Below are positions 1,647 through 8,619 of a stretch of DNA of 64,000 nucleotides, one piece after another. The stretch is from an uncultured Chloroflexia bacterium (GTDB lineage Bacteria; Chloroflexota; Limnocylindria; Limnocylindrales; CSP1-4): positions 2,108-66,107 of the forward strand of contig CAVQSY010000068.1 in the NCBI GenBank assembly GCA_963716025.1. The letters are read 5' to 3'. The notes beneath the pieces are model-generated. The model was not told the origin of the DNA and ran no database searches. It worked only from the letters and a program-made list of their open reading frames with translations. A program made the translations under genes and the position numbers. The stretch's first letter is position 1, and each line of letters opens with the position of its first letter.

Positions 1647-3578
1647 ATGATCGCGGTCACCGGTCTCGGCAAGTCGTACGGCGCGCGCACGCTCTTCGAG
1701 CACGTCTCGCTCCAGCTCAACGCTGGCTGCCGCTATGGGCTGGTCGGCGCCAACGGCTCCGGCAAGTCGACCCTGCTGAAGATCCTGACCGGGAGCGAGC
1801 CGGCGAGCGAAGGCGACGCGAAGTTCGCCAAGAGCGCTCGCATCGGGGTCTTGCGGCAAGATCGTTTCGAGAGCGACGAACAGATGATTCTGGACGTGGC
1901 GATGATGGGCGACGAGCTCGTGCACCGCGCCCTGGTCGAACAGGACACTCTCTCCCACCAGAGCGACCCTGATCCGCACCGCATCGCCGAGATCGACGAG
2001 ATCTTGTCGTGCGCATCGACGGCTACACGCTCGAGGCGCGCGCGGCGCGGTGCTCGAGGGCCTCGGCATCCCCGTCGCGTCGCACCGCCAGCCGCTCGCG
2101 ACGCTCTCCGGCGGCTTCAAGCTGCGCGTGCTGCTGGCGCAGGTGCTGCTCGGCGGCCCGGACGTCCTGCTGCTCGACGAGCCGACCAACCACCTCGACA
2201 TCCTCTCGATCCGCTGGCTCGAGAAGTTCCTCGCAGGCTACCAGGGCTGCGCGGTCGTGATCTCGCCACGACCAGCGCTTCCTCGACAACATCGCGACGC
2301 ACATCCTCGACGTCGACTACGGGACGCGTCATCGATCTACCCCGGCAATTACGCCGCGTTCCGGACGCGAGAAGGCGGCACGCGCGAGCGCAAGGAGGCC
2401 GAGATCGCGCGCGCCGAGAAGATCATCGCGGAGAAGCGGCGTTCGTCGAGCGCTTCCGCGCGAAGGCGACGAAGGCGCGGCAGGCGCAGAGCCGCCTGAA
2501 GCAGATCGAGAAGATCGAGGTCGAGGAGCGTCAGGCGACTCGTCGCGCCGCGCGCCGAGCTTCCGCTTCGAGCCCGAGCGCCCGAGCGGCCGCGAGCTCG
2601 TGCTCGAGGTCCGGGTGTCGAAGGCCTACGGCGACACGAGGTGCTCGTCGACGTCTCGCTCGCGGTGCGCCGCGGCGAGCGCGTCGCGGTCATCGGGCCG
2701 AACGGTCTCGGCAAGTCGACGCTGCTGAAGATCGTGACCGGCAATCTCGAGCGCCGACGCGGGCCGGGTCAAGTGGGGCCACGAGACGCGCGTCGGTTAC
2801 TTCGCGCAGGATCACCACGAGCTGCTCGACGGATCCCGAAGGACACGCGCTCGACGTTCATCTGGAACGCGTTGCCCAAGGCGCGAGACGGCCTACGTGC
2901 GCGGCGCTGCTCGGTCGCGTGCTCTTCTCCGGCGACGACGTCGACAAGCAGGTCGGCACGCTCTCCGGCGGCGAGGCCGCGCGCCTGGTGTTCTGCCGGC
3001 TCATGGTCGAGAAGCCCAACGTGCTCGTGCTCGACGAGCCGACGAACCACCTCGACATGGAGTCGATCGAGGCGCTCGTGGAGGCGCTGCGAGCGGTACG
3101 AGGGCACGCTCGTCTTCGTCTCGCACGATCGCTCGTTCGTCTCGGCGCTCGCGACGCGCATCCTCGAGATCACGCCCGACGGCTTCCGCGATTTCCCGGC
3201 ACGTACGAGGAGTACCTCGAGCGCTGCGGCGACGATCACCTCGACGCCGACGCGGTCCTGCGGGCTCGCCGCGAAAAGCGCGACACTCGAGGCGACCGGC
3301 GGCCTCCTCCGGTCGCCGCCATCCCGAAAGCCGACCCGAAGCGCCGGCGCGAGCTGGAGCTGCGGCGGGACGTGCTGACCGGCTCCATCGAGGAGGTGGA
3401 GGCGCGTATCTCGGGCATCGACGCACGTTTCTGCGAGCAGGGTTTCTTCGAGCGGACGGCCGACCGCGAGGTGCGCCGGCTGCAGGACGAGCAGCGGGAT
3501 CTCAGGGCGAAGGTCGCCACCCTCCTCGCCGACTGGGAAAAGGTCGAGGAGCAGCTCGCCGCCCTCGGCGAGGGCTGA
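1647..3578 (+). pseudogene. ABC-F family ATPase (two ABC domains plus C-terminal coiled coil), arm A paralogue, multiple frameshifts
   Basis: Recognisable motifs: MIAVTGLGKSYG...[17 protein letters not shown] (Walker A), [24 protein letters not shown], a second [11 protein letters not shown]...[12 protein letters not shown], and C-terminus ...LLADWEKVEEQLAALGEG. The correct reading hops between frames. Confidence 0.8.
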
Positions 3579-3657
3579 CGCCCCTCTGACGGGCTCAGCG
3601 CCTCAGCGGTTGGTGCTGATGTCCTGATTCCTGAGCCCTCGCAACACGCAACCTCCA

Positions 3658-6009: not shown

Positions 6010-7991
6010 ATGACGGAGACCACGCCCGCCGCGATCCGTGCGGCGCTCGACGACATCCTGCCCGGGGTCCAGAAGCCGTCGCGCTACCTCGGGCTCGAGC
6101 GGAATCTGGTGCCGCAAGGCGCTGGGACGAGGTCGCGGTGCGGGTGGCCCTCGCCTTCCCCGACGCCTACGAGATCGGGATGAGCCACCGGGACGAAGAT
6201 CCTCTACGAGATCGTCAACCGCCGGGAGGGCCTCGCCGAGCGCAGCTACGCGCCGTGGGTCGACCTGGAGGAGGTGATGCGCGCACGCGACGTCCCGCTC
6301 TTCTCCATCGAGTCGTGCGCCCCGGTGCGCGACTTCGACGTCGTCGGCTTCTCCCTCCAGAGCGAGCTGAACTACACGAACGTGCCCGAACATGCTCGAC
6401 CTCGCGGGGATCCCGCTTCGCCGCCGAGCGCGGCGACGGCCGACCCGGTCGTCATCGGCGGCGGGCCCTGCGTCGCGAACCCCGAGCCGGTCGCCGACTT
6501 CTTCGACGTCTTCCTGATCGGCGACGCCGAGGAGGCGCTCGACGTCTTCCTCGACGCCGTCCGCGACGGCCGCGCCGCCGGGGCGCCGCGCCGCGACGGC
6601 TCCTCGCCGCTCGCCGGCGATCCCGGCATCTACGTCCCGTCCTCTACGACGTGGACCTACGGCGCGGCGGACGGCGCCGGCGGATCGCGTACGCGCTCGA
6701 CGACGACGCCCCGCTTCCCGGAGGCGAGCGGGTCTGGGTCGAGAAGCTCGACCCCGGCCGACCCCGGAAGCCCGATGGTCCCGTCCGTCGACATCGTCCA
6801 GGACCGCCTCGGCCTCGAGATCATGCGCGGCTGCACGCAGGGCTGCCGCTTCTGCCAGGCGGGCTACTGGTACCGCCCGGTGCGCGAGCTCGACCCCGCG
6901 GACGTCGCCCGGATGACGAAGGCTTCATCGACGAGACGGGCTGGTCGGAGGTCGGCCTCCTCTCCCTCTCCTCGGCCGACTACTCGCAGATCGAGCCGCT
7001 CGTGGTGTCCTCGCCGCCGAGCTCGCCGACGACGAAGGTCTCCATCTCGCTGCCGTCGCTGCGCGCCGAGGCCTTCTCGGTCGCCCTCGCCGACGCCGTC
7101 TCGGAGGTGCGGAAGTCGGGCTTCACGTTCGCGCCCGAGACCGGCTCCGACCGCCTCCGCCGCGTCATCAACAAGACCTTCACGAACGACGACATGGTGA
7201 AGGCCGCGCGCGTCGCCTTCGAGCGCGGCTGGGACCTGATCAAGGTCTACACGATGATCGGCCTCCCCACCGAGACGACGCCGACCTCGACGAGCTCGTG
7301 CACGCTCGTCGCGAACATCCTCGCCGAGGGCCGCCAGAAGCGCGGTGACGGCCGTCGGTCAACGTCTCCGTCGGCTCCTTCGTCCCGAAGAGCTTCACGC
7401 CGTTCCAGTGGTCCGCCGTTCGACGGCGTCGAGCTGCGAACGGAGAGATCCGCGTTCTCAAGGAGAAGCTTCCGCCGCATCCGCGGCGCCAAGCTGAAGT
7501 GGCACGACCCGAGCGAGGCCGAGATCGAGGCGCTGCTCTCGCGCGGCGACCGGCGGATGTCGCAGGCCCTCCTGGCGCCCACGACCGCGGCGCGCGGTTC
7601 GACGGCTGGTCGGAGCACTTCTCCTCGGCGCTGGCGGAGGCGCTCGCCGACGCGGGCGTCGAATCGCCGAGGAGCTGGCACCGCGCAGAAGGACCTCGGG
7701 GAGACGCTCCCCTGGGACGTCGTCGACGCCTCGTCCGCAAGCCCTTCCTCGTGGTCGAGTGGAAGAAGGGCGCAGCGCGAGATCGCAGACCGAGGACTGC
7801 AAGTGGGGCCACTGCTACCGCTGCGGCGTCCCCGGCAACGGCGAGGACACCCAGCTCGCGTCGTCTCGAGCCTGCCGGTGCTCGGCGAGCTGCTGCCAGA
7901 GGACGAGCGCCCAAGGCCGCCGCGTACCGCCGGCGACCTGCGCCTCGCGTCGCCCGCCGCGGCACCGAGCCCGCCCAGCCGCGGTCCATGA
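6010..7991 (+). pseudogene. B12-binding-domain radical SAM protein (TIGR03960-like), arm A copy, many frameshifts
   Basis: Recognisable segments: MTETTPAAIRAALDDILPGVQKPSRYLGLERN, FPDAYEIGMSH, GGGPCVANPEPVADFFDVFLIGDAEEA, EIMRGCTQGCRFCQAGYWYRPVRE (CxxxCxxC), INKTFTNDDM. Confidence 0.75.
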
Positions 7992-8619
7992 TCCGCTATC
8001 GCTTGACGTGGCGAAGACCGGGGACGCCCGCTTCCTCTCGCACCGCCAGGTCATGGACACCCTCGAACGGGTGCTGCGGCAGCGAGGCTGCCGGTGCGCT
8101 ACACCGAGGGCTTCAACCCTCACATCCGGCTGTCGATGGGGCCGGCACTGCGGGGTCGGTCACGCCGGTCTCGCTGAGATCTTCGACGTCGACTGCACCG
8201 CCCCGATCCGCGCGCCCCACCTCACCGCCGCGACCGCGCTCCTTCCGGCAGGGCTCGATGTGATCGACGCGCGGCCATTGCTCGCCGGCGCCCCGTCTCT
8301 CGGCAAGATGGTCGCCGCGGCACGCTATCGCGTCGCGGCCCCGCCGGCCGGGGAGTGGCCCGACACCCCCGACTCCCTGCCTGGAGAGATTCGCGCCGGC
8401 ATTCTGTCGTGGGACCGGCGTGAGGACGGGGCTCTCCGACTCGAGCTCAATCTTCGCCAGGAGGACGGGCCGATCGTGAGCGTCAAGTCCATCGCCGCCG
8501 CCCACGGGCTGGACGCCGCAACCGTCGTACGCCTTCGCGCCATCCGCGAGCGGCTCGTGCTCCGCCCACGAGCCGGCGCCGGCACCGCTGCCGGCACCGT
8601 GGAGGTCGCGACGACATGA
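7988..8619 (+). pseudogene. DUF2344/TIGR03936-like protein, arm A copy (about 3 frameshifts in the first ~170 nt, clean afterwards)
   Basis: MIRYRLTW / AKTGDARFLSHRQVMDTLERVLRQ / YTEGFNPHIRLSMGPAL. Its ATG overlaps the radical-SAM stop (ATGA at 7988-7991). Its stop overlaps the queD start (ATGA at 8616-8619). Confidence 0.65.

Follow-up and report, generated by a model that had tools for sequence, protein, structure and literature searches.

A 22-kb mosaic palindrome in a metagenome-assembled contig very probably derives from a nanopore fold-back read

Contig CAVQSY010000068.1 (C68) of the metagenome-assembled genome (MAG) GCA_963716025.1 begins with a large palindrome whose two arms carry the same genes, among them fmt, rsmB and an ABC-F gene, and along which near-identical blocks alternate with strongly diverged ones. 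Such a mosaic raises the question of whether it was produced by exchange between two copies in a genome or by the way in which the contig was assembled. An initial annotation, made on a 64,000-nt stretch of the contig (positions 2,108 to 66,107; "the window", to which all coordinates without a contig prefix refer), proposed that two diverged copies had undergone patchy gene conversion or recombination, with a consensus path that switches between two related genomes as the alternative. The palindrome extends past the left edge of the window: it spans C68:33-22276, reaching from 2,074 nt ahead of the window to position 20169 within it, with its arms at C68:33-11191 (arm A) and C68:11198-22276 (arm B). 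Judged from the assembled sequence, the palindrome is very probably a fold-back (inverted-repeat) chimeric read from Oxford Nanopore Technologies (ONT) sequencing that was used as the tip of C68, rather than a feature of any genome, and the mosaic most likely informs on consensus quality and not on gene conversion.

The palindrome, its axis and its adapter-tagged end

A repeat scan of the window paired positions 1-9084 with 9091-18103 in an inverted-repeat chain, and a single BLAST alignment (85% identity, 947 mismatches, 261 gap openings) spans this chain from end to end. We globally aligned arm A (window 1-9060) with reverse-complemented arm B and plotted identity per 100-nt interval. Divergence is not uniform; rather, values of about 99-100% alternate with values of 60-90%. 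This heterogeneity has an index of dispersion of 10.4 and a lag-1 autocorrelation of 0.74, a value that none of 10,000 permutations attained (p<1e-4); the sequence therefore does contain a mosaic. The description given in the initial annotation was accurate in this respect. Its block coordinates were reproduced almost exactly by the 100-nt intervals (Table 1), the switch points do lie within open reading frames (ORFs; those of ABC-F, rsmB, fmt and the radical SAM gene), and 5801-6000 is identical to its partner sequence base for base, in keeping with the identity that it reported for 5876-6009. The first near-identical block reaches the contig start at 93-100% identity, with the exception of the first 100 nt, of which the 32-nt adapter described below forms part. 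Rfam and tRNA scans of the window gave no matches, so the repeats are not RNA operons.

The axis of the palindrome lies within a truncated response-regulator gene. When we aligned the axis to the locus of the closest relative of the arms, on a short-read MAG contig (L015), the L015 sequence kept reading upstream into the response-regulator gene, while C68 turned into its own reverse complement. We rejected a natural terminator hairpin as the point at which the assembler turned around, since the axis is within coding sequence homologous to L015. Fold-back reads are recognised by opposite-strand segments of one locus that lie no more than 200 bp apart (<=200 bp), and the spacer here is 6 nt. A true duplication should have unique flanking sequence on both sides; arm A stops at the contig tip, and we found neither a third copy of the palindrome genes nor a flank of arm A's outer end elsewhere in the bin.

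The contig tip itself coincides with the start of a read: C68 opens with 32 nt (CTGTCCGTACCTTCGACGAGTACCGTATTGCT) that reproduce, with errors, the nanopore ligation adapter AATGTACTTCGTTCAGTTACGTATTGCT, the sequence of which is confirmed in a published description (10.1101/2022.07.07.499093). These 32 nt align with the adapter end ...GTACTTCGTTCAGTTACGTATTGCT, and homology to arm B begins immediately past them, at nt 33. Nine copies of the adapter 9-mer CGTATTGCT are present in the 3.2-Mb bin. Four of them are located no more than 35 nt from a contig end and are directed inward, an arrangement with a chance probability of about 2e-10. The four ends concerned, with the adapter tail ...ACGTATTGCT at a distance of 24-34 nt, are the 5' ends of C68 and C66 and the 3' ends of C41 and C8. 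The assembly was therefore made from a nanopore ligation library, with untrimmed raw read starts as contig tips. Untrimmed adapter remnants thus stand in the deposited MAG at C68:1-32, at C66:1-34 and in the last ~35 nt of C41 and C8.

What the divergence between the arms consists of

To ask what kind of change separates the arms, we aligned arm A, arm B and L015 three ways, took codon positions from the L015 reading frames and counted differences private to each sequence in the diverged blocks only. Differences private to L015 fall mostly on third codon positions (88, 63 and 262 at positions 1, 2 and 3), as do those private to arm B (58, 54 and 150), which is the normal signature of evolution under selection. 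By contrast, differences private to arm A are blind to codon position, affecting about 15% of sites at each (235, 233 and 241), and they remain so when only those at least 15 columns from any gap are counted (90, 99 and 100). Codon-blind noise in the diverged blocks amounts to about 15% in arm A versus about 1% in arm B. The arm A substitutions are rich in G<->C exchanges and resemble random draws from a base composition of 70% GC. The three-way test replaced a simpler one, on the spacing of mismatches modulo 3 in the pairwise alignment, which gave no periodicity and is confounded by the density of indels.

Indels tell a similar story. The diverged blocks hold 56 between-arm indel events per kb and the near-identical blocks 10 per kb; of the 274 events in the former, only 17 (6%) are multiples of three. 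Relative to the intact orthologues of relatives, both arms hold many frameshifts; those of arm A, counted against L015, come about every 70-130 nt in the diverged blocks (12-29 per block). Gene conversion predicts third-position bias and in-frame indels in the unconverted tracts, and neither the private differences of arm A nor the between-arm indels bear this out. It also predicts equal consensus quality in the two arms, which would be present at equal dosage, and the load is in fact unequal, with frameshifts concentrated in arm A in the second diverged block (14 against 1) and in arm B in the centre block (13 against 1), although this comparison is indirect, being drawn from the consensus only. 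The initial annotation had called the diverged blocks protein-conserving; the scarcity of in-frame indels, the frameshifts in both arms and the codon-blind substitutions of arm A contradict that description.

Noise is not the whole of the difference. At 262 sites, again with third-position bias, arm A shares the base of L015 and arm B has a different one, and only about 48 chance reversions are expected. Alleles of two strains are therefore mixed in, and about 5% of the sites in the diverged blocks are genuine allelic differences between these closely related strains. The same sites led us to reject pure sequencing noise from one lineage as the source of the divergence. Most of the divergence, by our count of private differences, is nevertheless noise-like and located on arm A. 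In the diverged blocks, as judged for ABC-F, arm B is nearer than arm A to every one of 15 relatives, by 5-8 percentage points, and it is the better-supported copy of the real single-copy locus.

Table 1. Position of the palindrome features in the window, with identity between the arms and frameshifting indels relative to L015 (arm A / arm B).
Feature	Position (strand)	Identity between arms	Identity per 100-nt interval, by arm A range	Frameshifting indels (A / B)	Content and remarks
Arm A	1..9084 (+)				continues upstream to C68:33, right after the ONT adapter remnant C68:1-32
Near-identical block 1	1..1660	94-100%	1-1700, 94-100%		Hpt-REC-GGDEF / PhnD-like sensor kinase side
ABC-F gene, arm A	1647..3578				arm B partner at about 16451-14500
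Diverged block 1	1661..3225 (+)	68-92%	1700-3200, 68-92%	12 / 11	inside ABC-F
Near-identical block 2	3226..4565	92-100%	3200-4600, 92-100%	5 / 4	ABC-F 3' end, intergenic stretch, rsmB 3' half
Diverged block 2	4566..5575 (-)	60-92%	4600-5400, 60-79%; 5400-5600, 88-92%	14 / 1	rsmB 5' part and fmt 3' part
Near-identical block 3	5576..6010	99-100%	5600-6000, 99-100%	0 / 1	fmt 5' part and divergent intergenic region
Radical SAM-DUF2344 fusion gene, arm A	about 5976-8619
Diverged block 3	6011..8320 (+)	70-91%	6100-8300, 70-91%	29 / 18	radical SAM-DUF2344 fusion gene
Centre block	8321..9084 (+)		8400-9000, 81-97%, nearly all differences being indels	1 / 13 (mostly deletions)	DUF2344 end and PTPS/QueD-like gene; few mismatches
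PTPS/QueD-like gene, arm A	8616..8999
Truncated response-regulator 3' end	9088..9155 (+)				last ~21 codons (KGAQLVEAVSSAVGPTGFGFA, then stop); mirror at about 9020-9087, minus strand
Palindrome axis	9085..9090				6-nt spacer GATCAA between 40-nt perfectly complementary arms, 9045-9084 and 9091-9130
Arm B	9091..20169 (+)				runs on into the rest of the contig (49 kb)
fmt ORF, arm B	12342..13157				almost intact, 271 amino acids

Origin of the contig and state of the assembly

The contig was placed in the wrong bin. The fmt product of C68 is 72-85% identical in amino acid sequence to those of Acidobacteriota MAGs of the Thermoanaerobaculia / Sulfomarinibacteraceae type and only 37-38% identical to those of same-genus relatives of the bin; another fmt, which the bin itself has on C8, reaches 67-71% with these relatives. 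Moreover, in tetranucleotide composition the three strongest outliers of the bin are C68, C82 and C66. On these grounds C68 is a stray acidobacterial contig that was mis-binned. Because the contig is foreign to the bin, a DNA search of the "same-genus" relatives returned just short matches at about 70% identity. A scan of metagenome contigs with fmt gave nothing closer than 76% amino acid identity and offered no independent assembly of the lineage of either arm.

Among true relatives, the locus is not duplicated. We compared 15 acidobacterial loci, with flanks of up to 10 kb, to both arms, and the gene set is single in all 15; across more than 20 related acidobacterial loci (>20) it is likewise in single copy, and intact. 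In one of them (L019), all nine genes of the locus are intact ORFs, in the order CCG/Fe-S oxidoreductase, PTPS (QueD-like), radical SAM-DUF2344 fusion, fmt, rsmB, ABC-F, hypothetical protein, Hpt-REC-GGDEF and PhnD-like HAMP-PAS histidine kinase. The genes beyond PTPS are kept among 11 relatives, the CCG/Fe-S gene being conserved there; these genes have no close homologue in this bin. In L015, fmt contains an in-frame TAG (L015:10373-10375) where arm B of C68 encodes proline (…LLQRSV*IDPRD… versus …LLQRRVPIDPRD…), which is probably an assembly error of that short-read MAG contig or a polymorphism within the MAG.

Signs of a noisy consensus extend beyond the palindrome. Using switches in the phase of GC content at third codon positions (GC3) as a proxy for frameshifts, we found about 2.5 times as many switches per kb in C68 as in typical contigs of the bin. 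The switches are clustered also in the single-copy part of the contig (window 20170-64000), where they are frequent at 28-32, 36-44 and 50-54 kb of the window and infrequent at 32-36, 44-48, 54-58 and 62-64 kb. Consensus quality is therefore patchy along all of C68, as expected at low coverage. In the same part of the contig there is a tandem direct repeat (52526-62140) with a period of about 4740 nt and block-wise identity of 77-100%, a mosaic similar to that of the arms.

Mosaics occur elsewhere in the bin as well. In eight contig pairs (C3/C51, C24/C52, C52/C42, C39/C40, C36/C37, C80/C21, C41/C26 and C44/C45), the end of one contig matches the other contig for 4-11 kb, with an overall identity of 80-98% and with blocks of ~100% alternating with blocks of 75-90%. 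C3/C51, C52/C42, C39/C40 and C36/C37 show the same mosaic as the C68 arms, but with few gaps. These overlapping ends are uncollapsed strain haplotypes, with roughly 100 kb of redundancy in total, so strain mixture and uncollapsed haplotypes are general in this assembly.

Explanations for the mosaic and their consequences

We propose the following course of events. The read would have started at the ligation adapter, covered 11.2 kb of one strand of a single-copy acidobacterial locus (sensor kinase, Hpt-REC-GGDEF, ABC-F, rsmB, fmt, radical SAM-DUF2344 and PTPS), turned back at a random point within the response-regulator gene and returned on the complementary strand. Arm A would be the template half of this fold-back read, and one read, or very few, would underlie it. 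The second half would have overlapped ordinary reads, which extend arm B only and so would have built the rest of the contig. With C68 at low coverage, polishing would have been patchy: ordinary reads of the single real locus would have been spread over both arms, and wherever the arms shared reads they would have become near-identical and cleaner, whether coding or not. Blocks of arm A that attracted no other reads would have stayed near raw accuracy, with ~15% codon-blind substitutions and many 1-2-nt indels, and these would be the "diverged" blocks. The ~5% of third-position-biased differences would arise if the arm A molecule and the arm B reads came from two closely related strains. If the near-identical blocks owe their identity to the same reads polishing both arms, the paradox of intergenic DNA more conserved than coding sequence disappears; and if the block borders are coverage borders, as we suppose, switch points that ignore gene borders are to be expected.

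Fold-back reads are an artefact already known from nanopore ligation libraries. They comprise about 0.55-0.6% of ONT genomic DNA reads, fewer than half of them have any sequence between their two segments, and their presence can tangle assembly graphs (Heinz, Meyerson & Li 2026, PMC12870357); inverted-repeat chimeras make up 0.18-7.33% of reads in ligation libraries of microbial and human standards (Xie et al. 2026, PMC13141652). As in the reads described in these two studies, the halves of the C68 palindrome cover one locus on opposite strands, with little or no sequence and no internal adapter at the junction, and the adapter tail of C68 marks a ligation library. Unlike those cases, the palindrome is found in a finished MAG contig rather than in reads, and its arms are no longer mirror-identical, having been altered block by block, as patchy low-coverage polishing and reads of a second strain would do.

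Several points weigh against a fold-back origin. The terminal adapter shows only that a read starts there, not that it folded back, and the same picture would result at that point if a contig ended within a true repeat arm. Support for the axis by no more than one palindromic read, or a few, is something we infer, with the near-raw quality of arm A in its diverged blocks as indirect support. The substitution rate of about 15% is at the poor end of raw nanopore accuracy, and the arm A spectrum, with its likeness to random draws at 70% GC, does not look like a known nanopore error profile. Lastly, the outermost 3.7 kb of arm A are clean, so other reads must have been placed there.

Large palindromes and inverted repeats with arm-to-arm gene conversion are well known from plastid inverted repeats and human Y-chromosome palindromes. 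Like C68, these have two inverted arms with tracts of near-identity that ignore gene borders; they also have a spacer, unique flanks on both sides, equal read depth and codon-aware unconverted tracts, none of which holds for C68, where depth is judged indirectly from consensus quality. A real inverted duplication of the 11-kb locus in one acidobacterial genome, with conversion between the arms homogenising some tracts while others diverge, would fit the sharp borders of the identity mosaic inside ORFs, the stretches of arm A that read as a plausible alternative protein (for example the ABC-F N-terminus, 1660-1790) and the about 5% of between-arm differences that are codon-aware. It is hard to reconcile with an arm A that is close to raw quality, with codon-blind changes and with indels that break the reading frame of essential genes, fmt and rsmB among them, or with arms that differ in error load within the same block. 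Nor would it predict a 6-nt spacer within a truncated gene, an arm that ends at an adapter-tagged contig tip without a unique left flank, or a gene set that is duplicated in no relative. The gene conversion or recombination put forward in the initial annotation is thus not supported, and we regard such a duplication as very improbable indeed. We give equally little credence to a related scenario, in which an uncultured Thermoanaerobaculia-like acidobacterium has a real fold-back inverted duplication or a hairpin-capped break, with fmt, rsmB, ABC-F and the radical SAM gene duplicated, conversion keeping some tracts identical and one arm decaying neutrally.

The other proposal of the initial annotation, a consensus that switches between related genomes in a chimeric assembly, came closer to the truth. 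Strain mixture of the kind that yields mixed consensus sequences and uncollapsed haplotigs in MAGs is evident in the ~5% of codon-aware sites at which arm A matches the outgroup against arm B, and in the other contig pairs of the bin with the same mosaic. In another reading there was no fold-back read at all: the assembler joined the haplotig of a second, related strain head-to-head with the main strain, both arms faithfully represent co-occurring genomes, and the mosaic is real recombination between strains. The third-position bias of arm B's private differences and the many contig-end overlaps at 80-98% identity with alternating blocks would agree with this. However, gaps are scarce in those overlaps, while the C68 arms are separated by a high density of indels, and the codon-blind changes mean that arm A is not a faithful genome sequence. 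Haplotigs in MAGs are normally separate overlapping contigs; C68 is a mirror image joined at a 6-nt spacer, and such a spacer between 40-nt perfect arms is the product of one folded molecule, not of two haplotigs. We therefore consider a haplotig join very unlikely.

Linear replicons can end in covalently closed hairpins, as do the telomeres resolved by ResT, TelK and TelA in Borrelia, phage N15 and Agrobacterium. A nanopore read that passes around such a closed end, or around a hairpin-capped chromosome break, is palindromic and would have the same structure of adapter, first strand, turn and second strand. The axis in C68, however, is within response-regulator coding sequence that continues in L015, relatives are contiguous across the site, and their conserved genes continue beyond PTPS; a hairpin end would also leave the difference between the arms unexplained. 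No resolvase of the ResT/TelK type (PF16684) was found in the bin, which is weak evidence, as most of the acidobacterial genome is missing from the bin. A hairpin end seems to us extremely unlikely.

A fold-back read thus remains by far the most probable source of the palindrome, and the importance of the case lies mainly in data quality. The palindrome illustrates how, in a public MAG, one fold-back read can come to look like a recombination mosaic when coverage is low and strains are mixed, and two cheap checks that need no reads expose the artefact: adapter tails at contig ends, and the blindness of private differences to codon position. C68, besides being wrongly placed in its bin, is unfit for inferring gene duplication, gene conversion, pseudogenes or recombination, and the duplicated copies of fmt, rsmB and ABC-F are spurious.

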